This document shows, piece after piece, positions 1 through 42,781 of a stretch of DNA of 46,745 bases. How positions within the stretch are numbered: the first letter of the stretch is position 1; every line of letters begins with the position of its first letter. The notes beneath the pieces are model-generated. The model had not been told where the DNA came from and ran no database searches. It was given only the letters and a program-made list of their open reading frames with translations. The position numbers and the translations under genes were made by a program. This DNA comes from a virus: positions 1-46,745 of the IMG/VR virus record IMGVR_UViG_3300009481_000001; one strand, 5' to 3'.

Positions 1-81
1 GCCTGAGCCTGAGCCTGAGCCGAGGCCGAGGCCTGAGCCGTTGCCTGAGCCGGAGCCTGAGCCTGAGCCGTCGCCGATCAA
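1..81 (-). CDS. (Gly-X)n dipeptide-repeat ORF, N-terminal 27 codons (partial at window edge)
   Basis: TTG at 81..79 overlaps the TGA (80..78) of the upstream gene as TTGA. The reverse strand reads [27 protein letters not shown] with Gly at every second codon. It continues in frame into 46745..46545 if the window ends are joined. Confidence 0.45.
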   Translation of the reverse strand, partial: MIGDGSGSGSGSGNGSGLGLGSGSGSG

Positions 82-6990: not shown

Positions 6991-7338
6991 TCAGTACTCC
7001 AGTCCATGCACTTGAGCGAACATCCGAAGGTGGAAGTCCCACGCCTCCGGGTCCTTGTTATCGTGGATCGATTGCAGTTCAGATAGGAAAGAGATTGCTT
7101 CCCCTTCGTAGGGAAGACCTATGGCCTTGGCGATGTAAACCTCCTCCGGACCGTAGCCCTCCATGGAGGGCCTGTAGTCTTTGTCAGAGATACAGAACCC
7201 GAGCGCGCACCTAAGGCCGTTATCGCCACGGTATGCACAGCTTGATTCACCTTCCTGTGTACTCATAGAGCGCATGCCTTGTTTGAGCATGCCGTCTCGT
7301 GCGATGGTGAACACTTCTTGTTTTGTTCTCTTTATCAT
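6991..7338 (-). CDS. hypothetical protein (115 aa), first gene of the leftward arm
   Basis: ORF track. The translation looks like a plausible globular protein. Confidence 0.65.
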   Translation of the reverse strand: MIKRTKQEVFTIARDGMLKQGMRSMSTQEGESSCAYRGDNGLRCALGFCISDKDYRPSMEGYGPEEVYIAKAIGLPYEGEAISFLSELQSIHDNKDPEAWDFHLRMFAQVHGLEY

Positions 7339-7391
7339 AGCGGTCTGTACCCGTAGGTTAGAGGTGGGAAAGTATTATAAATACGCAGAGA

Positions 7392-7419
7392 GGTTGCCCG
7401 GTGTTTTCCCGGGCCAACC
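7392..7419 (-). terminator. GC-rich hairpin (GGTTGCCCGG / CCGGGCCAACC), possible terminator ahead of the 7338 operon
   Basis: Stem of about 10 bp with one bulge and a T-rich loop. On the reverse strand it is followed by tctctgcgtattt and then a TATAAT hexamer (7379..7374). Confidence 0.35.
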
Positions 7420-7492
7420 TCCTGCAATCCAAGGGGTTAACCGAATCCTTCGTTCCACGACATAGTGCTCCTTTGCGGGTTTTGAACCTAGT

Positions 7493-8117
7493 CCCTCCGT
7501 GATTGCTTGAAACTCAGTGTGACAGAATGTCACCGGGCTTGCAACCGGGCCGGAGTAGCTTCGGAAACGGTAATCATGGAAGGGGCCGATATCACTACGG
7601 AAACGGGTGTTTGGCATGGAGGGACATGGAGGGGATCCCTTCCATCCTCCATGATTGCATGAAAGTATGGAGGGGGCCTAAACGCTAGACGTCTCTGGGG
7701 CCCCTTCCATGGGACGAAAACGGGGGAGGGGATGAATAATCTTAATCATTCTAGTAGCTTAGCTACTAACTACTACCGTATATGTTGAAAAAACACCCCT
7801 TGCTATCTGAAGTGTTGCAGGAGTGCGGAGATTCCATCTTTGCAGATTTTTTCACGCAATCGTGGAGGGAGTTAAAACGCGCAATCATGGAGGGGACGTT
7901 CAGAATTCAATAAGTAGCCTTTGTGTCTCTATTGAACCATGAACACTACTTCCATCATTGCCCAAACCCTCTAGAAGCCTGAAATCATTGGGTTTTCCGC
8001 GATTGCAGGGGACTTGCCGGGCCTAAAAGGCCAACGATATCAAGGGTTTAGCGATTTCAAGCAATCGTGGAAGGGCTGGGTGGGTATTTATTTACCTCAA
8101 GTCCAGCCCTTCCACGC
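7493..8117. repeat. iteron-like array, consensus GCAATC(A/G)TGGA(G/A)GGG, at least 6 full and at least 6 partial copies in both orientations
   Basis: Full copies are at 7493-7506(-), 7570-7585(+), 7645-7658(-), 7856-7870(+), 7881-7896(+) and 8061-8075(+). Partial copies are at 7614-7624, 7625-7635, 7665-7676, 7701-7713(-), 7949-7961(-), 7997-8006(-) and 8107-8117(-). Confidence 0.8.
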
Positions 8118-8121
8118 TCAC

Positions 8122-8586
8122 TCAGCGCGCAATAACGGTATGCAGGTCCGAAGAATCGAAGTAGTGCTCCGACTCGTCGATCTTGACGCACTGTCCGACG
8201 GTCACCGCTTCATCCTTCTTGACACGGGCCGGACGGGGTCCGATGAAGTCACGAGCGTACGGCGTCTTGACACGCCGATCGCGTCGGTACTGCTGAAGCT
8301 CACCGTGAGCAGGGCTCGGGGCCTGCCAGGACAGCAGACGCGAGCGCAGCGGCTTGATACCGGCACGTCGCACCTTCGTACGGCTAGGCTTTCGGTGGGC
8401 TACACCCTTGCACATGCGGAACAGCCGCTCAGCGCGCATGAACGATCGATCGAGGTCCGAGATCAGAGCCACGGGCGCCGACGTGTCATATCGGGCCGCA
8501 TCACGCTCGTTCTCGATGCAGACGTTCAGGCTCACCTTGCGGGCGCGGCGACGCTTATTGCGCCGTTTCTTCGATTGACGGCTCAT
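8122..8586 (-). CDS. highly basic hypothetical protein (154 aa), possible nucleic-acid binder
   Basis: ORF track. SD AAGGGAG lies 7 nt upstream of the ATG. The N-terminus reads SRQSKKRRNKRRRARK. The gene abuts the iteron array. Confidence 0.55.
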   Translation of the reverse strand: MSRQSKKRRNKRRRARKVSLNVCIENERDAARYDTSAPVALISDLDRSFMRAERLFRMCKGVAHRKPSRTKVRRAGIKPLRSRLLSWQAPSPAHGELQQYRRDRRVKTPYARDFIGPRPARVKKDEAVTVGQCVKIDESEHYFDSSDLHTVIAR

Positions 8587-8614
8587 GATGTCGCTCCCTT
8601 GTGGTTATGCAAGT

Positions 8615-8639
8615 CCTCTAGAATCTGAATGATGGGCCC
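8615..8639. repeat. 25-bp inverted-repeat arm (CCTCTAGAATCTGAATGATGGGCCC)
   Basis: 24 of 25 positions match the reverse complement of 8918..8942. A degenerate third copy lies at 7967..7992. Confidence 0.8.
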
Positions 8640-8645
8640 GATGGG

Positions 8646-8828
8646 TCACTGGTCGAGTAGGACGATCGCGCGCTCGTAGCGCAGCGCCATGGGAAGGAAA
8701 CCGATGTTTCCGCCGGGAGAGGTCTGAGCGAGACTGCGGTACAGCTTCGCAAGCTTTCGGTACTTGCGCCGACGCTCCGCCTTTTCGCGGCGCATCAACG
8801 CGAGGTCTGCCCCGCTCACAGCAGCCAT
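8646..8828 (-). CDS. hypothetical protein (60 aa)
   Basis: ORF track. The ATG overlaps the end of the small upstream ORF. Confidence 0.45.
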   Translation of the reverse strand: MAAVSGADLALMRREKAERRRKYRKLAKLYRSLAQTSPGGNIGFLPMALRYERAIVLLDQ

Positions 8829-8899
8829 CCGAAGAGCGCAATTGCGCTCATGGCGGCGGAGATCGCGAGGTAATCGTGGGCACTGAAGATCTGGTACAT
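8816..8899 (-). CDS. small hydrophobic peptide (27 aa)
   Basis: Not in the ORF track. Translation is MYQIFSAHDYLAISAAMSAIALFGWLL. The stop overlaps the start of 8646..8828. Confidence 0.3.
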   Translation of the reverse strand: MYQIFSAHDYLAISAAMSAIALFGWLL

Positions 8900-8917
8900 A
8901 GTTGCTCCGTTTCTACC

Positions 8918-8942
8918 GGGCCCATCATTCAGACTCTAGAGG
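8918..8942. repeat. 25-bp inverted-repeat arm (GGGCCCATCATTCAGACTCTAGAGG)
   Basis: Partner of 8615..8639. Together the arms bracket a 278-bp segment carrying the two small ORFs. Confidence 0.8.
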
Positions 8943-9500
8943 GGATCAAGACATCAATGATACGATCGACACTACTGACTGTCGATTCCTCTGGGCGATT
9001 CCATGTACCGGTTTACAGTACTCGCAGCTTTGTAGCGTTATTGCGTCGGAGCGCTCCGTTACGTCTTACGTTATTGCCTCGATAGAAGATCACAAGAGGC
9101 CGCGTCTGCATTTGGTAGGATGAATCAATAATTCAAAAGGCCGAGCCAGTGGTCGAACCCATGGATCCTTGCGCCGATCGCATCATTGATGCCTTGATCG
9201 TTTCTTTATTGGCCTTAATCTCGTTACCCCGCATGGAGCGGTCCTCTGAAGAGGAGGGATCCGGGCACTAGTTGTCAATGAACCAGGCGGATTAGGCACC
9301 TTGCGGCGCTACCGCTCCCAGGATTCTCGCCCTGGGAAGCTTCCTTGCGTCAGCGCAGCTAGGTATTGCCAGTGTCGTGCCACCTGGTAAACATAACGAA
9401 CGTTATCTTTTAAGTGCTTGATATTATTGAGGAATTTAATTTAACGGGACATATGTACAGTGAACGTACGTGCCCGATTTTCAGCAAAAATACGTGAAGT

Positions 9501-9707
9501 GCGACATGTATGTCGTGGTTGAGAGCGCAGAGAATCGTGAACCCAATGAAATCAAGGACTTACACAGCGACATTTATGTCGTGGTCGATCGGGCAAGTGC
9601 CTGCACGGGACCTTGCGTGCCCGATTGTACGTAAGTAGCTGTAATCATTAAGGATTCACCGCACTACTGTACATATGTACAGTAGAACCGCGACATAAAT
9701 GTCGCGG
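9501..9707. repeat. three palindromes CGACAT-NN-ATGTCG, each followed by (C/T)GGT(C/T)GA
   Basis: Located at 9502-9515, 9568-9581 and 9688-9707. The third has 9-bp arms (CCGCGACAT aa ATGTCGCGG). Confidence 0.75.
9665..9684. promoter_or_regulatory. perfect 16-bp palindrome CTGTACATATGTACAG inside a 20-mer resembling a proteobacterial LexA (SOS) box
   Basis: TACTGTACATATGTACAGTA matches the textbook TACTG(TA)5CAGTA consensus at 18 of 20 positions and keeps CTGT-N8-ACAG. Confidence 0.35.
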
Positions 9708-9750
9708 TCGAGTCAAGGCACTACCCTACGCACAAGGGGGTCAAAAGCCA

Positions 9751-9878
9751 TTAGGAAGCCGCTGAGGGGCCTTAGAATCGAGAATCCGCAGGATGCCCCC
9801 AGATCGATTTAAAAACATTCTGAGCTATAGGGGTATGTCCAAAAATCGAGAAATGCCTTAGGAAGCCGCTGAGGGGCC
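9751..9878 (+). repeat. 21-bp perfect direct repeat TTAGGAAGCCGCTGAGGGGCC (9751-9771 and 9858-9878)
   Basis: Read directly. Each copy is accompanied by an AATCGAGAA(A)T element. Confidence 0.8.
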
Positions 9879-10036
9879 CAGATCGGCGCTGTAAACATAT
9901 GTTCAGTGGTGAACAAAAATGCACGGGAACCACGTTGCCCGACGCGCTGGCATATACACACGAGTGTGTAACGCGAACGTACTCGCATAAAGGTAGATAC
10001 GCGCGCGAGGGCAGCGAGTGTATAGGTATGCACCGA

Positions 10037-10157
10037 TACATACGAACACACACCAATACACCCGGACCACATGAATGTGTGTTGGTATGTATTGGTATGT
10101 GTTAGTACATACGAGTGTGTAATGTGCTATGTGTGTATTGGTGTGTGTTCGTATGTA
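10037..10157. repeat. 25-bp perfect inverted repeat in CA/TG-rich DNA (10037-10061 and 10133-10157), 71-bp spacer
   Basis: TACATACGAACACACACCAATACAC and its exact reverse complement. Confidence 0.8.
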
Positions 10158-10190
10158 CGATTATGCATTGGTATATTCAAATACACATAG

Positions 10191-10220
10191 CACACACGAA
10201 TACACACGAATACACACGAA
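10191..10220 (+). repeat. tandem decamer (T/C)ACACACGAA x3
   Basis: Read directly. It is embedded in about 280 bp of alternating CA/TG-rich sequence upstream of the terminase genes. Confidence 0.8.
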
Positions 10221-10374
10221 TACGCTCGACGACCGGGCGCCACGTGTTAAATTCAATACTATCTAGACCCAACACATTTTTTCCAAAAATTCAGCCAAAA
10301 TTATATATTACATATTTGGCGGAAAATCATACCATGTCTGGATTCCACAGTAACAACGGGCACTTACAAGCCAC

Positions 10375-10409: not shown

Positions 10410-10721
10410 ATGGCCGACGAATCAAACCTCCTTGCGTTCCCGCCACGAGCGGACAGTAACCTACCGGCGAAGGCAGACGAGCGCATAAACATGCTCAGCA
10501 GTATCGGCGTCACTCATGAGAGCCTGCTTGCGAATCTGGCAGATATAGCACAGACCGGAACGAAAAGAGTGATCACTAAGGACGCTCAAGGCAGTGTGGT
10601 CAAGGAGGTTATCTCAGAGGACCCAGGCGTTCGCCTAGCTGCTACTGCTAAGCTTCTTGAAATCTTCGAACCCAAGCCGAAGCGCAGCAAGAGGGGATAC
10701 ATCGAGGAGACTGAGTGGTAA
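10410..10721 (+). CDS. putative small terminase subunit (103 aa)
   Basis: Small gene immediately upstream of, and overlapping, the large terminase (GTGGTAA). The call rests on position only. Confidence 0.45.
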   Translation: MADESNLLAFPPRADSNLPAKADERINMLSSIGVTHESLLANLADIAQTGTKRVITKDAQGSVVKEVISEDPGVRLAATAKLLEIFEPKPKRSKRGYIEETEW

Positions 10722-12949
10722 GCTGGTCGCTAGAAGACCTCTCTAAAGCAGTCATAAAGCGTTCATCTACGGACACTAGTGCTGTTGAGAGGGAGGAGAT
10801 CGACGGTCGTATTCGTACGGGTATGGACCTGCTGCGGTCGTTACTTCCAGCTAACCACTGGTACGTACAGCTTGCATACCGTGTAGTACGTGGAGGAATG
10901 CTCTCGGACGTCATCCTTCAGGCGTACGCGAAAGAGAATCCAGACGCGCTCCTACCGTCCGCGGATGTGATTGCAGCGTCGAAGAACGATGTAGCCATAG
11001 CGGATGATATCATCAAAGAGGATGGGTCGCAACTGACCACAAGACAGGGCACACGCGAGGAAGCGCGCAAGATGGCCCTGTTTGAGCCAATTAAGTGGTT
11101 CAAGACATTCTCAGTTGTAAACTCTGAGGAGACTTACACCGACGACAGAGGGTTAGTCAAGAAACGCATCAAGCCGTTTGACTTGACCAACAACGACCCT
11201 CGCTCAAGGTACCAGCTTAAGTGTTACGGCCCCTTTCTAGAGAGGTGGGCCAACGACGATCCACACGTACCGAAGACTAAGATTTACGTACGTAAGGGTC
11301 GTATTGTAAAGAAGACATACCTCAAGACCAACAAGCACTACATTGCTCGCATGAAGCCGCGCAAGGTTGGCAGCACCACGTTCGGTAAGAAGTTCAGTGT
11401 ACTGTGTGGTGCGAATATCGACAACTGGTCTACGCTGCTACACTTCCCAGGCAAGGAGGACGCGAAGGCGCACCTAAGGGATATCGCAGAAGACCTCAGG
11501 CATCTGCACGAGAACTGGCCGCATATCTACCCGCCACTCGTTCAGGAGAACTACACTGAAGGTAGATTGGTTCTGGCAAATGGGTCGAAGTGGGAGATCA
11601 GATACTCGGATGCGGTCGGTGTCATCAAGGTCGGTCACACTGGCTTCAATCTCGTAATTTTAAGTGAGGCTGGCAAGTATGAGCGGAAGGCTGGAGCACA
11701 GGCGTGGGACGACATCAACCAGGCGATCCTCCCCGCTGTATATCCATCGACGCGGAACGTAATCCTCTGGGAAGGAACGAACGACGCTCAGGCTGCTGAG
11801 ATCAACAGGATCGCCCTTCTCGACTACGTAGATTTCCAGTTCTTTGGGGCCTCGGAGCTACATTCAAACGTAGGACGTGCAATCAGTCCTGACGAGCAGG
11901 AGTCAACACCTGCCGGTCGATACGCAGATTTCGAGATCGACGACTCCGGCGAGCCGAAGTCCATACCAGAGCGAGACTATATAGCTAAGCTGAAGCTCAC
12001 TCCTGAGCAGTGCGGGTTCAGAAGGCGGAAGATCGACGAGTTGGGCGAGTTGATGCTCGTTCATATGGAGTATCCCTACACGTACGCAGAGTCTCTAGGG
12101 CTCGTAAGTGGCGGGTTCTTCATGCGAGTACAGCCTTCACGTACACCGGATAACATTGGTGAGCTTAGGTGGGCTGAGGTCACAGCAGTAGAGCCAACGG
12201 TTTGGACGCCAGTGGAGTTCGTGCCAACCCTTCGTGGAGAGTGGCACATGTGGGACCTCCCAACGCTCCCTGAAGGGGAGGACCCATACTATGCTGTAGC
12301 GTCTGACTTTGCTGACGGTCTGCCGGATTCGGACTATGCACCGATCGGGGTTGCCAGAGTCAACGATGGACGCCTATGTGCATGCAGGCGGTCTCGACTG
12401 GACCCAACGTCGTCAGCGGACGAGCTTGCTAAGGCTGTATCATATTTCGGCGTAAGCAGAACGTACGTCATCGGCGAGTTGAACAACCCAGGCAAACTGG
12501 CTGTAAACCGATGGGAGACTTACGGTCACGGGCTTAACTATACGCAGTACCGCAAGCCACGCGGATACACTGAAGAACTTGAAATGATCTGGTTCCTTAC
12601 ATCTCCGAAGAGTAGGGACCCGATCCTGATCGCACTCAGGAAGGCTTATCACCTCGACCAGCTACTCATTCCAGACGAGAGATTCGAGTGGGACGCAGAG
12701 GGCTTTGTAAAGAGCAAGACTGGTAAGTACGAAGCTCAAGCAGTCAAGTCCCCACGTACCGGGGAGCGGTACATGGACGACTACATAATGATGGCTGCCA
12801 TGCTCTGGGAACTCATTCAGTGGATGCGTGAGCGGGGGATGGGTCGAGAGATTCAGGCAGACAAGGAAAGCGTCATGCCTAGCACACTGCTAGGTACGCT
12901 ATCTCCAAACATACAGAAGATCATTAGAAAATCATCGGAGCGAAGATGA
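10715..12949 (+). CDS. terL: terminase large subunit
   Basis: 744 aa, directly upstream of the portal gene. Walker-A-like KPRKVGSTT, Walker-B-like FNLVILSEAG, and a C-terminal acidic nuclease-like segment (YAVASDFADG). Confidence 0.75.
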   Translation: MVSWSLEDLSKAVIKRSSTDTSAVEREEIDGRIRTGMDLLRSLLPANHWYVQLAYRVVRGGMLSDVILQAYAKENPDALLPSADVIAASKNDVAIADDIIKEDGSQLTTRQGTREEARKMALFEPIKWFKTFSVVNSEETYTDDRGLVKKRIKPFDLTNNDPRSRYQLKCYGPFLERWANDDPHVPKTKIYVRKGRIVKKTYLKTNKHYIARMKPRKVGSTTFGKKFSVLCGANIDNWSTLLHFPGKEDAKAHLRDIAEDLRHLHENWPHIYPPLVQENYTEGRLVLANGSKWEIRYSDAVGVIKVGHTGFNLVILSEAGKYERKAGAQAWDDINQAILPAVYPSTRNVILWEGTNDAQAAEINRIALLDYVDFQFFGASELHSNVGRAISPDEQESTPAGRYADFEIDDSGEPKSIPERDYIAKLKLTPEQCGFRRRKIDELGELMLVHMEYPYTYAESLGLVSGGFFMRVQPSRTPDNIGELRWAEVTAVEPTVWTPVEFVPTLRGEWHMWDLPTLPEGEDPYYAVASDFADGLPDSDYAPIGVARVNDGRLCACRRSRLDPTSSADELAKAVSYFGVSRTYVIGELNNPGKLAVNRWETYGHGLNYTQYRKPRGYTEELEMIWFLTSPKSRDPILIALRKAYHLDQLLIPDERFEWDAEGFVKSKTGKYEAQAVKSPRTGERYMDDYIMMAAMLWELIQWMRERGMGREIQADKESVMPSTLLGTLSPNIQKIIRKSSERR

Positions 12950-24508: not shown

Positions 24509-26286
24509 TGGCTAACGATACGACACTAGACATTCGCTCACTCGGCCAGTCTGCCGGGTTCGCCCAGGGCTTCGAGAAGCAGGGCATGAGCATGCAGCAG
24601 ACGATGGAGTTGCGCCGCAAGCAACGCATCGAACGCATGATGCATATTCAGAAGCTCTCTCTAGGCGTGGAGCAACTTGCTCAGCAAGAGAGAGAGTCCC
24701 GCCGTAAGGCTCGGTTGACTCTTACTCAGTTGAACATGCTGGAGCATCAGAATATTCGTGGTCATGAGCAGCGCCAGAGACTACAGCAATTGAAGATGGA
24801 GCACGAGGTCGATCTTCAAGACCGAGCTGAAGCCGCCCAACTGAAGATAGAGGGAGAGCGACAGCAGCACGATCGCGACATGGCCGACATCGAAATGACG
24901 TTCCGCTCTGGTGAGAGCGAGAAGGATCGTCAGCTACAGCGCGAAGAGGGCTCTGCTGACCGCGCGAACCGATATGCCATCGCGAAGCTCCGCACGGCAC
25001 CCGCAATGCTTCGAGCGAAGTCAGACATTCGCAAAGAACAGATGGCTGAGAACGAGGAGATCATAAACTCTCTTCGACTCTGGGCTCGCCAGAACGTCTT
25101 CGACGACGGCAAAGGGAACTTCAATAGAAACGCACTGACGGAGATATTCGATCAGGACGACTCCATTCTGCATCCAGATGAAATAACAAATCTTTGGAGA
25201 AAAGAGTGGCTGGAGACCATCAAGGATCTTCCGCAGTTCCGAAACTCTGACGTGAACATCGGAGAGCTTATCGGGGACAAATCGTTTTCGATGTACCTAA
25301 AGAGTGTAGTAACTGGCCGAAAAGATCAGGAAGAAGCATTTCGCCGGTCTCTTGAGATCAAGCGCGAGGAGCAGAATAAAACGAGGTGGGATAATTCCGC
25401 ATCGAGGCTGCACATCAACATCGTTGACGGTCAGTCTATTACAGGGGTTCAGTACAACGGCAAGGACGACAGGATCACGTTCGCTGGAGACGAGGCAAAA
25501 GTGGCGCGCATGGAAGCGTTCGCAAAGGAGATTTCAGCAGGCGGGAACGGTCCAATCGAGAGGGATGCTAAGTTCCAGAACTTGATGATGGACCTACAGG
25601 TTCCTCAGACCATGTGGGGGCAGGCTGCTGAGGAGCTAGACCTCTACTTCTTCAAGAACGAAGGAGCTTACTCTCGTTTCAGTCAGTCCGATCCTGATGT
25701 ATTCTTCTCTGCGTCGCAACGCCTGAAGGGTTCACTGGGTCAGGAATCAGGACGCGTTGAGGATCCGTTCGACCAGGAGGTTACATCAGAGAACAGGAAC
25801 GTAGCCTCCCTCGCGACCTCCTACGGCAGACTGTCCGACATGCACAATCGGTACACGTCCGCACGTGCAAGTGCGGACCCGTCCGGCAGCGCGCTCATGA
25901 ACGTGCTCGCTGAGATTCGCGAACAGATCGTTAAGAACGAAAACGACGAGAGCATGAGCGATGCTGTTAAGGCATCGTGGAAAAAGATGGAGAAGGACGC
26001 GAACTCGGACCTAGTCAACGCGCTTTCTAAGCCTCCACCCGCACCGGAGGAGCCTAGGGAGCGAGAGCGCAAGGAAATAAAGAGCACACACGTAGCTATC
26101 CGTGGCGCCGGTATCGCTGACGCAGACTATCCGATCAGTCAAATCAGGAGAATGGCTGATGGTTGGGTCGATGACGCTGATCGAGCATCTGAACTAGGTA
26201 ACTTGATTAATGCGCTTGAAGCGGCTGAGGTCGATACCGACATCATCGACAGGGCAAAGCGCAAGAAGGCTGCGCTCCGTGGCTGA
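24508..26286 (+). CDS. putative internal virion or ejection protein, coiled-coil rich (592 aa)
   Basis: TAATG coupling. Long Q/R/E-rich heptad-like N-terminal region. Confidence 0.4.
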   Translation: MANDTTLDIRSLGQSAGFAQGFEKQGMSMQQTMELRRKQRIERMMHIQKLSLGVEQLAQQERESRRKARLTLTQLNMLEHQNIRGHEQRQRLQQLKMEHEVDLQDRAEAAQLKIEGERQQHDRDMADIEMTFRSGESEKDRQLQREEGSADRANRYAIAKLRTAPAMLRAKSDIRKEQMAENEEIINSLRLWARQNVFDDGKGNFNRNALTEIFDQDDSILHPDEITNLWRKEWLETIKDLPQFRNSDVNIGELIGDKSFSMYLKSVVTGRKDQEEAFRRSLEIKREEQNKTRWDNSASRLHINIVDGQSITGVQYNGKDDRITFAGDEAKVARMEAFAKEISAGGNGPIERDAKFQNLMMDLQVPQTMWGQAAEELDLYFFKNEGAYSRFSQSDPDVFFSASQRLKGSLGQESGRVEDPFDQEVTSENRNVASLATSYGRLSDMHNRYTSARASADPSGSALMNVLAEIREQIVKNENDESMSDAVKASWKKMEKDANSDLVNALSKPPPAPEEPRERERKEIKSTHVAIRGAGIADADYPISQIRRMADGWVDDADRASELGNLINALEAAEVDTDIIDRAKRKKAALRG

Positions 26287-29200
26287 CGAGTTCGAAAAGT
26301 CATTCGCTGAGGCGATTGCTGAAGGGTCTGCGTTCACTGAGAACGACAGTACTTCTGTAGCGTCTGCGCCTCCGTATGCATACGCGTCCACTATTGGTCG
26401 TTTCGGCGGGTCCGGCGCGAGAAGATACGATGACGCTGCGCTGTCGAAGGAAGTGCGCGCTGCGAAGAACGCACAGAGGATGGGCTACATCAACCAGTCC
26501 GAGTTCGACTGGCTGATCTCTGTCACTGACGACAAGGAGAAGCGATCAACCGTAGAGAAGATCCTAGGGTACGCACAGAACACCGGGGGTGTATTAGGTA
26601 GGCTTGACGACATCTTCGGCATTCTCGAAACGGTATCAGGATACAGACTGTTCGTGTCTGCCTCGATGGCGGTGACCGAGGGCCTGAAGGAAAAAGGCGG
26701 GTGGGGGCTTGCATTCTCAACGAAGGAGTTCAAGCGTGCCTGGACTGGCGAGGGTGTAGAGGGTGGTCGGACTTCGTATCGCGACGTTCTGATGAAGGGC
26801 GGGTCGAACGTTGATGGCGTAGGCGGGTTCGCGAAGTCAGTGGTATTCGACATCGCGCTGGACCCTGCGACATACCTAACTCTTGGAGCATCCGCTGGGA
26901 CCAAAGTTGTACTGAACCAGACCACTAAGGCTTCACGGAGGACTGCGGCTGGAAAGCTCGGACGTACTGCGACTGAGATCCTCAAGGAGTCGACCGGCTC
27001 TAAGGCCCTACCTTCGAGCCTGACACTAAGCGAGTGGGGACATCAGGTCTATCAGGTCGCATCGAAGGAGCTTGTAGAAGCACAACCGGAGCACCTTCGT
27101 AAGATCATCAAGCATCTAGATGACGGATCAGAGGAGTTCGCTCAAGGCGGACTCAAGACACTGTCGCCTTCGGATCTTAGCAGGGCAGCGTCCAACCCTG
27201 CTTTCCGTACAGCAGTGACAGAGTACGCGGTAAGGAACTACGATCGCCTAGCGATGCGCCTAAGCTCATGGAACGACATTGGTAACGACCTAGCTGGCAA
27301 GGCAGTTGACGGCACCTCACGGTCGATGATTAGACGTGGCCCTGGAGCTATGTTCTGGGAGTGGAGCGGCAAGGCAATCGGGGGCCTACTGAATCCGATC
27401 GGCAAGGCGCGTGACGCAGGAGCGCAGGCTGCATTGATAGCCGGTGGCGCCCGCACAATGTTCGGAGAGACCGCACAGCTAGGCACGAGAGAGCTAGGTC
27501 TACGCGGACTGAGCCGCGCTACCGTAGCAGGACAGGTCGCAGGTGGTCTTGCGCTCGGTGATGCAGGGCTTGTAAGCGCCTCCCTTGCTGGAGCTCTGCT
27601 GGCAGAGGTTCCGGCTCTTGCCAAGAAGACCGCGAGCAAGGCTCTGCCGACTTCAGCAGTTCGTCACATCGAGAAGGCGTTCTCCTCTGGTGTAGAGCGT
27701 ATGCCAGTTGAAGACGCTGAGATTTTCCAGAAGATCAAGAGCGGAATGGATGTCGCAGTCGAGGGCAAGCGACAGGAACTTGTGGAGTTCTTCTCGTCGC
27801 CGGTGGTCCACTGGAAGGATACATCTAGAGCACTGTCTAGGAGCGACCGTCAGACGATCGCCCGTCACATGGACAATCCGGACCTCAAGCTGATCGAAGA
27901 TGGCTCACCGCTCTATGAGCCGATGAAGTGGATCCAGAATCAGTTCAAGCACATCGGAGAGCAGGAGAGAGAGGCAGGTCTTCTCGGAGCAAGCTGGGAA
28001 CACTACGTCACCCACTTCTACGGCTCGCGTCAAGCTGGAGCCGTAACTAAGTTCTTCAAGAACTCGAACCGTACGAAGAGACTGGTCGCTGAACTAAGTA
28101 AAGAGTCCGTCTCCAACACTAATTCCTTCTCGTTGCATCGCGTGATCGCAACCTTCGACGACGCTGAACGACTCGGCATGGAGCTTGATACTGATATCGG
28201 CTCAATCCTAGGTCGACGATGGTCTGCATCCATGCGCATGCAAGCGAGCATGCAGGCTAAGCAGGCGATGATTAATCGTCACGGCATCAGCGCGCTCGGA
28301 GAGGGTTTCAAGAACGCACACGGCGCGCTAAGTCAGATCGGCGGCAAGCTAGGAACACTCACCAGGAACTTCGTAGACCTTGGTCCTCCGCACCCTGCAT
28401 CCCATGAGGAGATTGCACGGCTAGCGGACATGGTGACTGACGCTCGTGTGGTCCCTGGCGTTGACTGGTTCGCTACCACCGGAGACCTTGAGAAAGCTAT
28501 TCGCGCAGAAAAGGTACGCAAGGCAACCACAGGACTCAAGGGTAAGGCTAGGAAGGCAGCCGCCCGAAAGGCTAATGATGCGATAGTCGATAGGTATGTC
28601 GTGCTAAAGTACGCCAGGAATAAGAACCTGAAGGCTCTGGATAAGGTTTCTAAGTCTGCGTTCGGCAAGCCCATTCGAAAGCTTAGCTCAGGGGAGTTGG
28701 CCGCGCTCCGCGATTACTTGAACCTCACCGTACTGAAGAACGAAGGAGCGGTGGCTAGCTTCGTCAAGGTCGGTGAAATGAGTAACCGACATCGCATGGC
28801 TCTGGTTCAGATTGGTCAGCCAGTTAGGGCAGGCAAGAAGGCAGGCGAGAAGGTCACTACTACTGGAGATATTCCGCGTGGCATCCGAGGAGCATCTGTC
28901 GCGCATAGGCTCGGACGAGAAGCCCCTGAGGTCTCAGACGCTGAGCTTGCAAGGATGGGCAAGAAGCTCGCTCAGTCTCGCGGACAGGTAGACGAGATCG
29001 CTGAGGAGTTTGGTGGGGTCCAGGGTGGTATCGATCGCAAGTATCGAGCTATAGCCCGCGAGGAGCTCGCTAGTCGACCCACTCAAGAGGCTAAGCTTCT
29101 TAGAAATGTGGTGGAAGAGGGTCTACAGAGATCGAAGAAGAGTTCCCTATCGGCCGCTGCTGCTGCTAAGGCGAGCGCGAAGTCGCTCAGGGGCAACGTG

Positions 29201-31543
29201 CCCAAGGAACTCCGACGCAAGGTCGCCGCTGCTGCCTCTATCGAGGAGCGTCTCTTTGGAGCTAAGAAGGCTCTAGGTGACCGGCGCGCTGCCGTTAATC
29301 TAGCTCAGAAGCCGAAGCTAGAGATCGTCAAGCGGGTCGAGTCTCAACTTGAGTCAGCCATCCTCAGGCGAGACCTAGCAGTGGAGCGTCAGGTTTCCAG
29401 GGGCCTCGAAGGCGAGGCGCTTAAGACCTCTCGTGAGAGCATTCGCTCGCTCAGCGCAACTGTAGCCGAGAAGACTAAGGACCTCAAGGCTGCTAAGATC
29501 GACATGCGTAAGGCTGCGATGAAGCCGCGAGGAGAGTTGACTAAGCTTGAGAAGGCGGTCGAGAGGCTGACCAAGGAGCAGGCGGACCTTGCGGACGCAC
29601 TAAAGGATAATAAGACTGACATCGTCAACTGGATCCGAGCTAGAGACCTGACCGCTACTGCCGCACAGCACAGGCTGGCAGCGGAAAGGCTAACGAACGT
29701 AATCAAGGCTGAGCAGAAGATTGGGGCCCGCGGCGATCAGGTCCTCGACGGCAAGTACTACGTTCCAGAGGTATGGCTTGACGCTATCGATGAAGCATTC
29801 GGTCATACGTGGAATCCGTCGAACATTATCGACAGGTGGCTGAGCGGATACCAGCGGTTCCAACTGCTTTGGAAGATTCCGCTCACGCTGCCATTCGCTG
29901 AGCATCATGGCCGAAACGCTATCACTAACGCATTTCTAGTATCAGGCCACCTAGGCGGAAGAATGCTGAACCCTTCGAACTGGGTCGACGCAGCCTCCGT
30001 AGTGGCTATGGGTATACACCGAGGGGCCACTGGCAAGAGTCAGGTTGCTCGCGCCGGAGCTAGAAGGAATAAGATTAAAGGGCTTGCTGAGCCTGATCTA
30101 CGTGGCCTATGGGGAGACCATAAGGTCAAGACCGCAACAGGAGTCACCTATACTTCTCGTGAAATCTTCAAGCAGGCCACTATCCGATCGATCACCCACG
30201 GGTTCGTTGCATCTGAGGTGGATGGTGTTGCTGGACTGTTCGGCGACCTCATGCACGGTAGGCTTCAGCCGAACCTAGGCTCGCTCGCAGAAGCAGCTAA
30301 GGTTCTCAAGAAGAAGACGGGCATCGCAGACTTTCCTAAGACCGTGAAGGAAGAGGGCCTAGTCGGAGGGTCAGCGATAACCGCTGGTAAGGTCACAGGC
30401 GCCACCCTAGACGCCATGCGTGGGGCAATGTTCAACTCAGCGAGGTGGGTGAGCCGCAAGTCTGAGCATGCTGTAGATGTTCCGTTCCGGTTGGCGCTGT
30501 TCACTGATGCCGTTAAGCGTGGCAAGACCTTCGATGAAGCCGCTGAGGAAGTTCGACGTCATCTTAATGACTGGTCGCGACTCTCTACCTTCGAGAAGAA
30601 GTACGCGCGAACACTCATTCCGTTCTACTCGTGGATTCAGTTCTCGATGGAAAGGTTCTTCAAAGACCTTACAACTAACCCGTCGTCTATTCAGAACCCA
30701 CTCAGGATGGTGCGCGCCGCGCAGGAGTCCATGGGTGCGACTCCTCCAGACGCTCAGTATCAGTCAGACTGGATGGCTGAGCGTATTGGTATCTGGAGCG
30801 AGCAGGGGGAGGGGCTGTATAAGCGTTACCTCTTGAACGGACTGAATGCTGACGAGGCGCTGCGGCAGGTGAGCGCGCTTACTGAGTTCGCTAACGCTGC
30901 TGCACATAGGATCTCTAGACTGTCATCTAAGACCGAGGGGCTCGCGTGGAGTGTATTCGCCCCAGACGCAAATCCAGCAAACGACCTTCGGTTCCTAGCA
31001 CAGATGGACTTCATGACCACTTCGCTGGTCGAAGGGATCAGGGGTAGGGACTTCTTCTCTGGGGCGCCGACCGGTACTCAGGAGTCCGTACTTCAGGATG
31101 CTGGCTACAGTAGGTATGAGTCTGCTAGGGCTCTCGTGCATCCAGCGGTTCGGGAGTCAAAGGGTGCGACCTTCCTTCGTGGGATCTTGATGGTTCAGGA
31201 GACCGCCGATGGGGACCCTAAGAAGGCGCGGGCGAACGCAACAGTACGCTGGCTGCTCGGTAAGTCGCCCGCGTCTCGCTTCGTGTCTACCTACGAGCGA
31301 CATAATAAGAACATCATACAGTCGTTCGAGACTGGAGAGCAGGGCAGGGTTGCTCACGAGGTCGCACTAGAAGCTCTAGGGACTAGGGCGTACGCATACG
31401 ATCCACAGAGGAATAAGGTTTACTACCGCAGGGACCTTATTCAGACCGCTCAGAATCTCTTGCTTCAGAGCGGTTACTACCAGAAACACGGGATCGTGTA
31501 TAAGCCTCGGACTTTGAAGGACGTTCGACAAGAAGGCGAATGA
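26279..31543 (+). CDS. giant virion protein (1754 aa; internal core, ejection or tape-measure-like)
   Basis: GTG at 26279 overlaps the upstream stop (GTGGCTGA). It is the largest gene and the last in the structural arm. I recognised no catalytic motif. Confidence 0.45.
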   Translation: MADEFEKSFAEAIAEGSAFTENDSTSVASAPPYAYASTIGRFGGSGARRYDDAALSKEVRAAKNAQRMGYINQSEFDWLISVTDDKEKRSTVEKILGYAQNTGGVLGRLDDIFGILETVSGYRLFVSASMAVTEGLKEKGGWGLAFSTKEFKRAWTGEGVEGGRTSYRDVLMKGGSNVDGVGGFAKSVVFDIALDPATYLTLGASAGTKVVLNQTTKASRRTAAGKLGRTATEILKESTGSKALPSSLTLSEWGHQVYQVASKELVEAQPEHLRKIIKHLDDGSEEFAQGGLKTLSPSDLSRAASNPAFRTAVTEYAVRNYDRLAMRLSSWNDIGNDLAGKAVDGTSRSMIRRGPGAMFWEWSGKAIGGLLNPIGKARDAGAQAALIAGGARTMFGETAQLGTRELGLRGLSRATVAGQVAGGLALGDAGLVSASLAGALLAEVPALAKKTASKALPTSAVRHIEKAFSSGVERMPVEDAEIFQKIKSGMDVAVEGKRQELVEFFSSPVVHWKDTSRALSRSDRQTIARHMDNPDLKLIEDGSPLYEPMKWIQNQFKHIGEQEREAGLLGASWEHYVTHFYGSRQAGAVTKFFKNSNRTKRLVAELSKESVSNTNSFSLHRVIATFDDAERLGMELDTDIGSILGRRWSASMRMQASMQAKQAMINRHGISALGEGFKNAHGALSQIGGKLGTLTRNFVDLGPPHPASHEEIARLADMVTDARVVPGVDWFATTGDLEKAIRAEKVRKATTGLKGKARKAAARKANDAIVDRYVVLKYARNKNLKALDKVSKSAFGKPIRKLSSGELAALRDYLNLTVLKNEGAVASFVKVGEMSNRHRMALVQIGQPVRAGKKAGEKVTTTGDIPRGIRGASVAHRLGREAPEVSDAELARMGKKLAQSRGQVDEIAEEFGGVQGGIDRKYRAIAREELASRPTQEAKLLRNVVEEGLQRSKKSSLSAAAAAKASAKSLRGNVPKELRRKVAAAASIEERLFGAKKALGDRRAAVNLAQKPKLEIVKRVESQLESAILRRDLAVERQVSRGLEGEALKTSRESIRSLSATVAEKTKDLKAAKIDMRKAAMKPRGELTKLEKAVERLTKEQADLADALKDNKTDIVNWIRARDLTATAAQHRLAAERLTNVIKAEQKIGARGDQVLDGKYYVPEVWLDAIDEAFGHTWNPSNIIDRWLSGYQRFQLLWKIPLTLPFAEHHGRNAITNAFLVSGHLGGRMLNPSNWVDAASVVAMGIHRGATGKSQVARAGARRNKIKGLAEPDLRGLWGDHKVKTATGVTYTSREIFKQATIRSITHGFVASEVDGVAGLFGDLMHGRLQPNLGSLAEAAKVLKKKTGIADFPKTVKEEGLVGGSAITAGKVTGATLDAMRGAMFNSARWVSRKSEHAVDVPFRLALFTDAVKRGKTFDEAAEEVRRHLNDWSRLSTFEKKYARTLIPFYSWIQFSMERFFKDLTTNPSSIQNPLRMVRAAQESMGATPPDAQYQSDWMAERIGIWSEQGEGLYKRYLLNGLNADEALRQVSALTEFANAAAHRISRLSSKTEGLAWSVFAPDANPANDLRFLAQMDFMTTSLVEGIRGRDFFSGAPTGTQESVLQDAGYSRYESARALVHPAVRESKGATFLRGILMVQETADGDPKKARANATVRWLLGKSPASRFVSTYERHNKNIIQSFETGEQGRVAHEVALEALGTRAYAYDPQRNKVYYRRDLIQTAQNLLLQSGYYQKHGIVYKPRTLKDVRQEGE

Positions 31544-34888: not shown

Positions 34889-36142
34889 TCATGAGAACAG
34901 GCCCTTCTGCTTCGGGGTAACAAGCGGGAAGTTCGAGATCACTGACTCCTGTCGTGCTCCCCGAGACTCAGCGTGGCCGAGCGTGTAGTCCACGTCTACG
35001 TAATTGACTTGGAAGTCTCCCTTTGCAGGCCCGAACCATTTCATGTACTTATCGCCAGCCTTATTGCTGTTGGTCATGAGGACCTTGTTGCCAGCCTCGT
35101 TGATCTTGACCATGGCCTCAGCGAGTTCCATGTGCCACTCGTCTGGGAACTTCAGGGCGTAGCCTTCTGTTTCTAGGTATGGAGGATCAAGGTAGGTGAA
35201 CACATCACCAGCGGCCACACGCTTGAGCGAGTATCGGGTGATGATGTCTCGGAAGTCGGCGCACTCGATCCAGACCCCTCGAAGCCTACGTGCTGCCCGC
35301 TTGAAGGTCTCAGGGCTCGCCTTGCCCGGGGAGGAGTGAGCGGACCCGGCGTATGGCTTCCAGACCAACCCATTGTAGCTATTCAAGGAGAGGTAGCCGA
35401 ACATGACGGCCCACTCAAACTCGTTGCGGTGAGCATACTCCCTCTGGAACCACCGCTGATAAATACGCGAGGATGGCAGTGCGTTGATTGCGTCAGCAAG
35501 CTCGTTAGGCCACTGTGAGCACACGCGCCAGAAGTTGATCAGCGCCTCGTACTTGTCGTTTACGACCTCGACCTTAGAGGGCTTCTTACCGAATAGAGGC
35601 TTCATCGATCCGCCGAACACTTCGACGTAGGTGTGGTGCTCAGGAAACCGAGCAAGGAGCCACTCAAGCATCTTCGACTTGCCACCCATCCAGCGGATCG
35701 GGGAAGCGCACGGAGGCTCGGGATCTTTTTCCTGAGGAAGAACCTCCCACCCGAGACCCGCCAGTGTCCAGTGCGGAAGGTCTGAGATACCATCTGGAAT
35801 AACGATCCCCCACTTCGACTCCCCGATCGTGACATCGACCGAGAAGGACTCAGCGGGTGTACCGCGTGGCGCGATGATGGCAGTCGGATCCGTGGGTCGA
35901 AACCCAGGCTCACGACGGTCCTTCATGCTGTCGATCTTCTCGTCAAGATCAGGCATTTTCGACTTGACGGTCCGCGAGCTATAAAGACGAGGACTGCCAG
36001 CACGGCACGAGAGCTTGTGTGGTACGAGACCATCGATACTGGTCTGTAGCAGGAAGGACGGGACCCCCATAGCAGAGGAGATCGCTTCCGCGGAGTACTC
36101 GTTACCGTCGGAAACGTATGCTACGATTTCAGCTTCAAGCAT
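34889..36142 (-). CDS. DNA N6-adenine methyltransferase (Dam/D12 class) with an N-terminal extension of about 140 aa
   Basis: IRWMGGKSKML, VEVFGGSMKPLF (AdoMet motif) and YLDPPYLETEGY (DPPY motif). The N-terminal 55 aa look winged-helix-like. Confidence 0.8.
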   Translation of the reverse strand: MLEAEIVAYVSDGNEYSAEAISSAMGVPSFLLQTSIDGLVPHKLSCRAGSPRLYSSRTVKSKMPDLDEKIDSMKDRREPGFRPTDPTAIIAPRGTPAESFSVDVTIGESKWGIVIPDGISDLPHWTLAGLGWEVLPQEKDPEPPCASPIRWMGGKSKMLEWLLARFPEHHTYVEVFGGSMKPLFGKKPSKVEVVNDKYEALINFWRVCSQWPNELADAINALPSSRIYQRWFQREYAHRNEFEWAVMFGYLSLNSYNGLVWKPYAGSAHSSPGKASPETFKRAARRLRGVWIECADFRDIITRYSLKRVAAGDVFTYLDPPYLETEGYALKFPDEWHMELAEAMVKINEAGNKVLMTNSNKAGDKYMKWFGPAKGDFQVNYVDVDYTLGHAESRGARQESVISNFPLVTPKQKGLFS

Positions 36143-36753: not shown

Positions 36754-36929
36754 ACTCCATCCTTCGATCCTGGTCCATACGCAACGCGCCTGCCGTCGAT
36801 CGCTGCTATATAAGCAATATTATTACACTTGATTACACCTAGCAAACTATTCTTATGCGCCGCCCTAAGGGTATGTCGGCTGGTGCATATGTAGCACTTT
36901 ATTCTACTACCATCCCTGAGAACCCTCAT
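36741..36929 (-). CDS. hypothetical protein (62 aa)
   Basis: ORF track. ATG overlaps the primase-helicase stop (ATGA). Confidence 0.45.
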   Translation of the reverse strand: MRVLRDGSRIKCYICTSRHTLRAAHKNSLLGVIKCNNIAYIAAIDGRRVAYGPGSKDGVWRR

Positions 36930-39900
36930 GCCGCCTCCTCAGGTTGGTACGTAGCTTCAAGCCATCGTCGAAATTGGTCAGTCTTGATAAAAGATCCTCG
37001 CCGCTCGATAAGGCAATCAGAGTACAGCGTAAGTGTCGCCATCACCTCCTCAAACGAAGGCTTATTCTGCACGTCCTTCGTTACCTGCCATGCGGTAAGC
37101 AGATCGTTGCGACGGACTGAGCCGCGGTTAATGAGGATACGAGCGAAGGCTGGGCCGCCGAGCGCATGAAGCGCAATCTTGACATCGTCACTCTTAATGT
37201 TCCCGTGTCCGATCGCGCTGGCTATCTTCCACTCTGGAGTAGAGTACAGGTCCTTGATGTAGTTTTCAGCCACCTTTACGTGGTCCATGGTCACGAGAAC
37301 CTTATCATCCTTGCGAGAGAAGCTCAATGCAGCAAACGCTGATGCAAACCTTCCTACCTTCCACCGAGCCTCAGTAGGCTCTAGGGTTGGTAGATTCTTA
37401 AACATCTTAGCGAGTCTTTGACCAGCGTCTGCGGCTGCCTGTGAAACCTCAATGCTCAGATCAGGCTTCTGTGTCCATGCCCAACGAATGTGCTCCTGAG
37501 CGATCTCCTGTGTGTAAGTGATCGGCTCAGGAGTATGGTCGAAGTTGGGTGACTCAAGCTTATATACACCGATCACGGACTCGAAGCGAGCAAGGTCCGC
37601 AGGCTTCTTGATAAGCTCCCGGATGGCGTACAGGAGCGAGTCATACTGCGATAGTCGTCTACTCCCCTTCGGGTTGGTCGCCATGATCATCCGGAGTGCG
37701 GCAGAAGTTCGCCTAGTGCCGCCAGCGATCGATCGCTGCGCTACGCCAGAGGAGCGGATACCTGTGAGCTTACCGAAGATCCCCGTCTCGATCAGTTCAT
37801 CAATCTCGTCAAGGAACGCGAGCCCGCCATTCTGCATAGGCAGTGATCCCCACGCGAAGACCTTACCCGCTGAGCCATAGTCACTCTTACCTCCGACCAG
37901 TCCAACATACGACGCTCCCTCAGCATCGATCATTGAGCCTGCGCCGAAGTGCTTGATCATCAGACTAGCAGCAGTGGTCTTGCCCTGACGTGAATCTCCC
38001 ACAACTAGAAGCTCGGGTGAAATCTTTTGATTGTCTCCCCCGAACATCTTGAATCTGATTGGCATAAAGAACAGGAGCAGGTACGCGAGCAGCATTGTCC
38101 GCTGGTCGTAGATCCTAGTGACGCCAAACTCCATATCTCTAAGGATACCTGAGACTGCTGCCTCTGTCCCGTTTTCACTATTCTTTTCGAGAAAGGAAAT
38201 TGTGGAGGCCGACATGGTAGCTGAGTGGATTGATCGCTTAGCTGGTCTGATACGTGTAGCGATCATGGTAGCTTGCGAATTCATCGGGTCCGCACAAATC
38301 TTACCGCTTACCGTAACAGCTTCATTGTCTCTAGGGATGTCGTCTCCCAGGTAATGAACCGGGAAGATGAAGTGTCGTGAATCAGACCAGTCGATACCCT
38401 TTGCCTCGCTATCCGGGGCCAGCAGTACAGGCATAACACGAGACCGCGTGTACTCAAACTCAGGGTGCGGGCAGCGTGGAGGGATACCCAACAGGTCGTC
38501 TCTCAGGCGCTTCTCCTGCCTGGACGGCGCGTTTCCTGAAAGTGTGATGATCTCATGTGGCGGCACCTTTACCGCTCGCTCGAATCCAAAGCTAGGAAGC
38601 TGGCACTTAGAGCAGTTTGGGATCTTGTTATCTACCCCAAAGTCACACTTAACTGTACACCCACTAATGACAAACTTTGCACTACTGGTCCCGCCCGCTA
38701 CTACAGCATGCATCTGAACTGGTCGTTCGGCAAGCTCTACATCATGCACTTGACTGAATGAAATATTGGTAATCTCCTGGTCGCCAGGGGAGGTGACATG
38801 TCCGTCACGCGGCAGTGACCACCAGTCAGAGAAGTCGAAGTTACGACTCCTGTAGTAGTCATTTACGTCCCCGAACGGAAGTCGTACGATTCGCACTTCC
38901 CCTGCGACTCCGTACAGTGCGTCTGCAAGCTTTACGGCTCCCTTTCGACCGGCTTGGTCCGCATCCAGCGCGATGTCCACGCTGAGACCTTTGAACTTGC
39001 TGAGCCACCCACGCACGAATGATGATTCGCCACCAGTAAATGTAACAGCGGAGATACCGTTGGAGTTGAGTAGAATCGCTTTCAGTTCCCCGCCAGTTAT
39101 GCAGATCCATGGGTTAGGCGCTCCAACATCTTCAATTGCCGTTACTGCGAAATTCTCGACCGACTGGCTTGGGTATAGATTGTTCTTATTGTGCTTCGAT
39201 ATGCCAGTGACCTTGGACCCGCGCTTTCCTACCTTGCGGCAGGTACCAACGTCCCATACCTCAGTGCGGCCGAATCCACCGACCTTGAATACGCTACCAG
39301 CTTCGTTCCTCCACGCACAGTTTGCGCGCATTATATCGTGCTTACGTACGTTAACGACTCGACCCGCCACTGAGACGGGAATCATCAGACGTTGCTCCTG
39401 GCTGCTCCATCCGAGCTTGAATGTGCGGACTGCTTCAAGCGTAACTCCGTAGTGCTCACGAAGCTTTGTAAGTACAGAAGAGTTACCCTCTAGTCGTGAC
39501 TGCCAGTATGGAATTCGATCTAGGTACTTCTGAGGAATCTGCTCGTACCGAGACTCAATGCGCTCCTCTGCCCGCTTCTTTCTATCAGACTTTTCATTGC
39601 GAAATACTGGAGGAGGTAGGTGGAAAGATCCGCCGAGCCACTCTGCGATTTGCCGTAACGCTTCTCGGAAATCTACGGAGCGTAAGTGCTGCCATGCTCC
39701 GATAAGGTCCGCAGTCTGACCACATCCCTTGCATTCGTACCCGCCGTGCTTCGCACCGATACAGAGGCTTGCGTGTTCGTCATCGTGGTGCCAGCATCGG
39801 TAAAGCCAGGTATCAGAGACGCGCTTACCCTCCTGTCCAGATAGTTCATCGTAGAATACATTAACGCCACGGTCCAGAACGCGCGCCTTGATATCCTTCG

Positions 39901-42760: not shown

Positions 42761-42781
42761 CCCTTTTCTAAGTGGTTGATA

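Follow-up and report, generated by a model that had tools for sequence, protein, structure and literature searches.

A conserved array of 21-bp repeats around an AT-rich center in a phage early operon: a candidate origin of replication

A repeat array between p154 and p115

The DNA analyzed here is IMG/VR record IMGVR_UViG_3300009481_000001 (46,745 nucleotides, referred to in full as the window), which looks like the complete and probably circular genome, ∼46.7 kb long, of an uncultured marine phage. Two genes of its leftward early operon, p115 (6991–7338, − strand) and p154 (8122–8586, − strand), are separated by a stretch with no credible open reading frames (ORFs), positions 7339–8121, and directly after p154 this stretch carries the repeat array that is our subject. 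An original prediction made from the letters of the sequence had described an array of iteron-like repeats of 14–16 nt at positions 7493–8117. The array is real and lies far above chance expectation for both forms of the motif that we considered. With up to two mismatches allowed, GCAATCRYGGARGG has 13 matches in the window where 2.3 are expected; with up to one mismatch, ATSRTGGARGG has 17 where 5.4 are expected; and none of 100 shuffled sequences reaches either count. The genome-wide enumeration proposed as a check on the prediction therefore gives a motif frequency above that of shuffled sequence. Eight of the 13 GCAATCRYGGARGG matches fall within 7493–8074, a segment covering 1.2% of the window; each of the remaining five carries two mismatches and looks like a chance occurrence. 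The shorter form behaves similarly, with 9 of its 17 matches within 7493–8118.

The predicted core is right, but a weight matrix extends the motif 6 nt further in the 5′ direction, giving a unit of ∼21 nt, TTTCA[ACT]GCAATC[AG][TC]GGA[GA]GG (TTTCAnGCAATCRYGGARGG), or TTTCACGCAATCGTGGAGGGA when written out as a 21-bp site. The six best copies, from which the matrix was built and whose scores are therefore high by construction, score 19–29 bits; three further full-length copies score 9–16 bits, and the best match anywhere else in the window scores 15.7 bits. At least five additional copies consist of the core only ([CT][AG]TGGA[AG]GG; 7615+, 7625+, 7638−, 7703− and 8108−). The array thus comprises ∼15 copies in both orientations, with the full-length copies confined to 7489–8078, and as a 21-nt repeated site it has the sequence character of iterons, namely several copies of a site of 17–22 bp. 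Partial copies had also been predicted, and core-only copies are indeed present, but some are better read as the complementary arms of a hairpin, most clearly 8066–8079/8103–8116. Readings of the motif as a sigma-54 site, a MotA box or a DnaA box were compared by eye and do not fit.

The shorter core AAT[CG][AG]TGG, which has 14 matches in the window and 9 in 7572–8922, had been said to recur in inverted repeats beyond p154. This is literally true of the 26-nt inverted repeats at 8615/8917 (8628+ and 8922−, and also 8872+), but the likeness extends over 8 nt only and scores below 8 bits with the full matrix.

Conservation in related phages

Our comparison covers five lineages: the window itself, L002/L043 (from IMG/VR and JGI; TerL 63% identical to that of the window), L040 (ENA; p154 66% identical, 67% in local alignment, and TerL 59%), L048/L049 (TARA; with a split TerL) and L052/L053 (ENA and Logan; with P0013 as the p154 homolog). 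Across these relatives, identity to the window is 59–64% for TerL where known and ∼35–66% for p154. In each of the five lineages, the non-coding DNA directly after the p154 homolog contains 3–9 copies of the GCAAWS-NN-GGRR type in both orientations, with the two strands used about equally. In four of the five, every copy in the available sequence lies within this matching stretch; in L040, 6 of 13 copies do, in a stretch amounting to 4% of the locus. The motif takes the form GCAAWCRYGTTTAA in L048, where its 3′ half reads TGTTTAA.

A BLASTN comparison of the window with L002 finds no similarity across the array, whereas the flanking genes are 65–73% identical. Because the array DNA no longer aligns while the flanking genes do, the motif is under selection and the spacer DNA is not. 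At least five copies nevertheless occupy matching positions in the window and L040. Four to five lineages also keep a common order of elements (all described below): the variant copy with GGAAAAC, the GGCCTAAAAGGCC-GATAYC block, the final (+) copy and the hairpin after p154. A global alignment with L040, read as a footprint, gives 63% identity inside the copies, which is not clearly above the 59% outside because the alignment drifts. The central dinucleotide of the motif is partly genome-specific (AG in L002; GC in L040; AT or GT in most copies of the window); such partial sharing of motif details within a genome is expected for sites that are read by one factor. Each relative also has a single AT-rich peak (68–78% AT) inside its own array. 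The more distant p154 homologs of L054 and L055 (the latter overlapping L044) are followed by coding DNA, and the short sequence available there contains no motif.

Organization of the array

From left to right, the full-length copies are oriented −,+,−,+, then +,+,−,−,+ on the other side of an AT-rich center, at irregular spacings of 25 to 195 nt. The leftmost copy, TTTCAAGCAATCACGGAGGGACTA on the − strand (7489–7512; 28.9 bits), and the second, GAAACGGTAATCATGGAAGGGGCC on the + strand (7564–7587; 19.5 bits), both have counterparts at matching positions in L040. The first forms a 27-nt inverted repeat (81%) with the copy at 8055–8081, and the 3′ part of the second is 100% complementary to 7699–7711, where a core-only copy, GGCCCCTTCCATG, lies on the − strand. 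The segment 7615–7646 holds three core-only copies (CATGGAGGG at 7615 and 7625 on the + strand, and CCTTCCAT at 7638 on the − strand) and includes the near-palindrome ATGGAGGGGATCCCTTCCAT; its counterpart in L002 is GGAGGGGATTCCCCTCC, followed by a full copy on the − strand. Full copy 3 (7641–7664, −; 27.1 bits) overlaps a copy of intermediate strength (7655–7678, +; 15.0 bits), with which it forms an inverted repeat. The back-to-back pair (7615–7634) and the inverted pair (7625–7658) that had been predicted are both present as described.

The array also contains conserved elements that are not copies of the motif. The first is a 16-nt element, AAACGCTAGACGTCTC (7680–7695), whose palindromic core AGACGTCT occurs nowhere else in the window. 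This element is identical in L002 and reversed in orientation in L040. We also note that the slightly longer sequence CCTAAACGCTAGACGTCTC (7677–7695) is reversed relative to its flanks in L040 (∼9470–9490, in window orientation), a small inversion around the palindrome AGACGTCT.

The AT-rich center (7732–7791) is the second least stable 60-nt duplex of the 46.7-kb window, with a stability of −68.2 kcal/mol against a mean of −88.6 and a standard deviation of 5.2, that is, 3.9 standard deviations below the mean. It contains a TACTACTAC-type sequence common to L002 and L040, and it is a candidate unwinding site adjacent to the repeats. To its right, two full copies on the + strand (7850–7873 and 7875–7898; 29.4 and 24.0 bits) form a direct tandem with a spacing of 25 nt; a similar pair, 24 nt apart, is found in L048. 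These are followed on the − strand by an intermediate copy, GTTTGGGCAATGATGGAAGTAGTG (7944–7967; 15.9 bits), which has a counterpart at the matching position in L040, and by a variant copy, GCAATCGCGGAAAAC (7989–8012; 9.2 bits), in which GGAAAAC replaces GGARGGG. The variant occurs at the same relative position in L002, L040 and L052.

Next lies a conserved block, GGCCTAAAAGGCC-AACGATATCAAGGGTTTAGCG (8020–8053), in which a small hairpin or palindrome, an A-tract and, at 8038–8050, an exact match to the IHF consensus occur together. The block is kept in L002, L040, L048 and L052, although the relatives match the IHF consensus only partly. Exact matches to this consensus, WATCAANNNNTTR, number four in the window where 0.53 are expected (8038, 9411, 9550 and 42769). 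The three outside the array are at 9411–9423 (−), 9550–9562 (+) and 42769–42781 (−), the first two within the neighboring control region; L048 has an identical copy of the 9411 site, TATCAAGCACTTA (in the block at 2703–2723).

The last full copy, copy 6 (8055–8078, +; 29.3 bits), has counterparts at matching positions in L002, L040 and L052. Its GGAAGGG part also contributes one arm of a perfect 14-bp hairpin (arms 8066–8079/8103–8116, −) that immediately follows the p154 stop codon on the 3′ side. All five lineages have a hairpin here, of differing sequence; the stems of L002 and L040 each contain a single imperfect position, which reads G-U on the mRNA strand and A-C on the opposite strand. 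The most fitting interpretation of the segment 8066–8116 is a hairpin in the RNA of p154, either a terminator or a 3′-end protector, that reuses half of a motif copy.

At the opposite end, a palindromic pair of motif cores, CCCTCCATGGAGGG (7157–7170), lies inside the p115 gene and may be an outlying part of the array. The interval before p115 also contains an 8-codon micro-ORF, MSWNEGFG* (7437–7463, −), which is preceded by the ribosome-binding sequence AAGGAG, has the form MPWNEGFD* in L040, and is followed just upstream of p115 by a GC-rich hairpin (7392–7419). The micro-ORF and hairpin may constitute a leader-peptide or attenuator arrangement. As a further observation, GATC occurs 369 times in the whole window where base composition predicts 177, but only once in the 783-nt segment 7339–8121; the phage encodes a D12-class adenine methyltransferase (34889–36142).

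BLASTN of positions 7000–9200 against phages and plasmids returned no similarity, and an exact 15-mer scan of IMG/VR gave single chance matches only. A CRISPR array or a miniature transposable element was considered and rejected, given the irregular spacing, the use of both orientations, the lack of any other copy in the window, the lack of a BLASTN match among phages or plasmids and a position kept by synteny in the relatives. DNA inversion was also considered, and two independent contigs of the same phage are 100% identical to the window and in the same orientation, with no sign of inversion.

A candidate origin of replication

The interpretation that we prefer, tentatively and at less than even confidence, is that the region 7339–8121 acts in cis as double-stranded DNA, as an assembly site for protein–DNA complexes that may be an origin of replication. 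A sequence-specific DNA-binding protein would recognize the asymmetric 21-bp motif, occupying some nine full-length sites and several half-sites that flank the AT-rich center. A host protein of the IHF type would bend the DNA at 8038–8050. The bound complex could then open the AT-rich center, where the phage primase–helicase would load, and leftward early transcription would enter the region after the p154 gene and its hairpin. The primase–helicase is a protein of 1022 residues (gene 36926–39994) with a DnaG zinc ribbon, a Toprim domain and an SF3/MCM-like P-loop.

Two lines of argument favor recognition of double-stranded DNA by a protein. The use of both strands, together with the inversion of AAACGCTAGACGTCTC in L040, fits this mode of recognition better than recognition of RNA, and motif details are common to the copies of a genome rather than changing pair by pair. 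The combination of an array restricted to a single locus, an unstable center, an IHF site and a fused primase–SF3 helicase fits the kind of origin described for Staphylococcus aureus pathogenicity islands (SaPIs). We found no integrase, ParA/ParB or repressor domain in any ORF scanned, and therefore have no pointer to an attP site, a centromere or an immunity region.

The SaPI origins contain 6–12 iterons with an AT-rich region near the center and iterons on each side in opposite directions (PMC9371898). The array described here has the same layout, with six strong and about nine weaker copies around the AT-rich center at 7732–7791, and the self-loading SF3 helicase (Rep or Pri-Rep) of SaPIs and related phage-inducible chromosomal islands has a parallel in the primase fused to an SF3/MCM-like helicase. 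There are also clear differences. SaPI iterons are 5–6 bp long and lie immediately 3′ of rep, whereas the sites here are ∼21 bp long and the helicase gene is 14–29 kb away; the array extends over 600–800 bp with unique conserved blocks between the copies; and no winged-helix domain is detectable in the C-terminus of the primase–helicase.

Other known origins share some features with the array. In satellite phage P4, the alpha primase–helicase binds ori and crr, two separate clusters of the octamer repeat TGTTCACC. Direct and inverted sites serve a fused primase–helicase in that system as well, and the sites may lie kilobases from one another and from the gene, but P4 has no sequence similarity to the array, and the C-terminal binding domain could not be traced to a common ancestry. 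Classical iterons (oriλ, pSC101, R6K and P1 oriR) are tandem direct repeats with a spacing of ∼22 bp, located next to or inside the initiator gene and commonly accompanied by DnaA boxes. The array resembles them in its repeated site of 17–22 bp, its adjacent AT-rich candidate unwinding region and its candidate IHF site, and transcription into the region would parallel that at oriλ; it differs in its mixed orientation, its irregular spacing and its lack of a DnaA box. Iteron-like arrays around an AT-rich center are a familiar design, and our finding extends known biology rather than changing it.

Several observations weigh against an origin. (i) No recognizable initiator gene lies beside the array, and the gene for the primase–helicase, which had been proposed as a binder, is 29 kb away (∼14 kb if the genome is circular). 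Its C-terminal 243 residues have no Pfam or PDB match and resemble no known DNA-binding domain, so that this binder is plausible only. (ii) Given the mixed orientation and irregular spacing, the copies are not helix-phased direct repeats. (iii) The array contains no DnaA box, and GC skew shows no sharp switch there. (iv) The AT-rich, repeat-laden segments at 9384–9443 and 10255–10314 are equally plausible as origins, and promoter regions are likewise AT-rich and flanked by factor sites. (v) The two distant phages with p154 homologs show no array in the short downstream sequence available.

The original prediction had offered origin iterons or a multi-operator regulatory region as the likely function. 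A conserved array at a single locus, an unstable AT-rich segment and an IHF consensus bear out this pair of possibilities, but sequence alone cannot choose between its members. The array probably marks either the origin or the main early control point of the phage. In both cases it supplies a defined 21-bp probe for the binding protein, and the conservation of the motif across five lineages makes a probe experiment well posed.

Possible transcriptional control and the candidate role of p154

The main rival to an origin, which we regard as somewhat unlikely, is a transcription-control region between the immediate-early genes (p60 and p154) and the downstream early and replication genes. The copies would then serve a phage regulator, possibly p154, as operator- or enhancer-type sites, and this regulator would either repress or activate a promoter in the AT-rich center or govern read-through of the hairpins at 8066–8116 and 7392–7419. 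The location suits this proposal: the array lies in the leftward operon between the conserved terminator-like hairpin that follows p154 and the GC-rich hairpin and micro-ORF before p115, and p154 and the array are neighbors in five lineages. Regulated promoters typically have AT-rich segments and IHF sites, and the neighboring divergent control region holds two more IHF-consensus sites. It is also consistent with regulation that the 8-nt core AATSRTGG recurs in the inverted repeats bracketing p60. However, a sigma-70 scan found no promoter-like site in 7339–8121, although sigma-70 may not be the promoter type of the host; no −35/−10 candidates conserved across the relatives were found; and a terminator scan of the array yielded one weak terminator-like site only. 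Asymmetric 21-nt sites in ∼15 copies over 600 bp would be unusual for operators, no strong copy is present at any other promoter region of the genome, and p154 lacks a recognizable DNA-binding fold.

The p154 protein is basic, with an arginine-rich N-terminal helix, and belongs to a tiny family, with nine representatives found in a set of 1.84 billion proteins. Common to all members are an arginine-rich SKxxRRxKRR motif at the N-terminus and the C-terminal motifs RRDRRxxTPYARDFxGP, VTxGEC and EHYFD. The protein has no match in Pfam, PHROGs, NCBIfam or PDB and belongs to no known initiator family. AlphaFold2 models based on 5 and 10 sequences reached a mean predicted local distance difference test score of 54–56, which is insufficient for searching by fold; the models have some confidence only in the basic helix at the N-terminus and in one short helix, and most of the remainder is predicted to be disordered. 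Adjacency in five lineages makes p154 a candidate partner of the array, as a binder or a regulator. As the binder named in the original prediction it is plausible only, since it is predicted to be mostly disordered and its distant homologs lack an array downstream. We considered a direct correspondence between the GGARGGG half-site and the arginine-rich N-terminus and rejected it: the half-site is TGTTTAA in L048, yet the L048 homolog, read from a corrected start codon for this comparison, keeps the arginine-rich N-terminus.

It is also conceivable, though improbable, that p154 and the array form a previously undescribed module, in which a disordered arginine-rich protein would read the 21-bp site, or an RNA copy of it, and gate the passage from immediate-early to replication genes. 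If true, the module would represent a novel type of initiator that binds origins, or else an N-like antiterminator acting through repeated sites.

Possible RNA-level and packaging functions

A function at the level of RNA is more doubtful still. On this view, the region would act as a leader or intercistronic RNA, highly structured through stems of GGAGGGG and CCCCTCC motif halves, and p154 would be an RNA-binding antiterminator like lambda N, using its arginine-rich N-terminal helix. The N protein of lambda is a small, basic early protein with an N-terminal arginine-rich motif, mostly disordered with short linear motifs, encoded at the start of an early operon with terminator-like hairpins next. 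Likewise, p154 is a small basic protein for which disorder is predicted over most of its length, along with conserved short linear motifs, its family has the SKxxRRxKRR motif in every member, and terminator-like hairpins follow its gene. The structure of the hairpin after p154 is kept in five lineages with different sequences and with G-U pairs on the mRNA strand, and both strands of the region fold far better than shuffled sequences (z = −10.8 for the mRNA strand and −7.8 for the other). These z-scores do not discriminate, however, because any inverted DNA sites fold well on both strands. Because full copies point either way in equal numbers, any transcript would carry half of them in antisense form. 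Differences between phages affect all copies of a genome alike rather than particular pairs, and the 16-nt element AAACGCTAGACGTCTC is inverted in L040. Rfam and tRNA scans found no known RNA or Rfam family. There are no boxA/boxB sequences on the transcribed strand and no sequence homology to N; the single boxB-like hairpin, GGCC-TAAAA-GGCC (8020–8032), has its A-rich loop on the non-mRNA strand.

A packaging site (pac, or cosB-like sites for a small terminase with IHF) or the partition centromere of a plasmid-like prophage is very unlikely. Asymmetric sites clustered at one locus together with an IHF consensus do recall lambda cosB, and the array lies within 2.6 kb of the putative terminase genes. 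However, it is 2.3 kb from p103/TerL rather than adjoining the small-terminase gene on its upstream side, and the interval contains two genes of opposite orientation and 1.5 kb of other repeats. A better candidate for packaging lies directly upstream of p103 (10020–10314), where ACACACGAAT arrays of 10-bp period and an AT-rich segment are likewise conserved in relatives. No ParA, ParB or integrase domain was detected, and scans of 185,579 reference genomes with p154 and with TerL found no prophage copy.

Genome setting

Leftward genes run from ∼8.9 kb to position 1 and from 46.7 kb to 31.7 kb, and rightward genes run from 10.4 to 31.5 kb. Recognizable products include a CHAP lysin, an SNF2 helicase, the D12-class adenine methyltransferase and a major head protein. 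A 744-residue protein (10715–12949) is likely the large terminase, based on its position, its size and a Walker-A-like motif; it has no match among 50,697 phage records. An ORF of 1777 residues in the structural region (26210–31543, +) has no Pfam match. The phage belongs to a lineage with no cultured relative and most of its proteins have no family assignment, so that the array is among the few features that allow functional inference.

Hexamer repeats of the GCCTGA type are found at both ends of the window (1–80 and 46666–46745), and the contig was probably cut within a repeat of a circular or circularly permuted genome. The minus strand of these end repeats would encode a glycine-rich, collagen-like protein. 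Twin contigs of the window phage are 46,865 and 46,857 bp long. The possibility that contig ends are physical genome ends was ruled out, as the start of L044 merely overlaps contig L055 from the same sample.

Features of the neighboring control region

Beyond p154 are two adjacent segments of 200–360 nt, each bracketed by near-perfect inverted repeats of 17–27 nt, the first of which encloses the small gene p60. The bracketing repeats are at 8615–8640/8917–8942 and 8944–8968/9175–9199 in the window, at 7549–7565/7805–7821 and 7827–7853/8073–8099 in L002, and at 1498–1522/1885–1909 and 1909–1935/2196–2222 in L048. The layout is kept in these three lineages with unrelated repeat sequences, which suggests long-range RNA stems (RNase III sites, for example), DNA looping or invertible segments. 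The segments have the same orientation in two independent contigs of the window phage, and no inversion was seen.

Upstream of the putative terminase genes are arrays of ACACACGAAT and TGTGTATTGG with a 10-bp period in both orientations (10020–10230), followed by the least stable 60-mer of the window (10255–10314), directly upstream of p103 and the putative terminase. ACACAC arrays akin to ACACACGAAT occur in L048, L044 and L054. The whole segment, 10020–10314, is a candidate pac/cos site or second origin-like element.

A perfect palindrome, CTACTGTACATATGTACAGTAG (CTGT-N8-ACAG; 9664–9685), resembles the LexA SOS box of gamma- and beta-proteobacteria and may hint at the host or at control linked to the SOS response. 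Half-copies are present at 9449–9462 and 9895–9908, with related copies 222–224 nt apart, and similar sequences occur in relatives (at 2655 and 2730 in L048 and at 169–182 in L044). Also in the divergent control region are GCGACATnnATGTCG(Y)GGT, a sequence with a palindromic core that is present three times (9501–9529, 9567–9595 and 9690–9718), and two copies of TTAGGAAGCCGCTGAGGGGCC (9744–9771 and 9851–9878).

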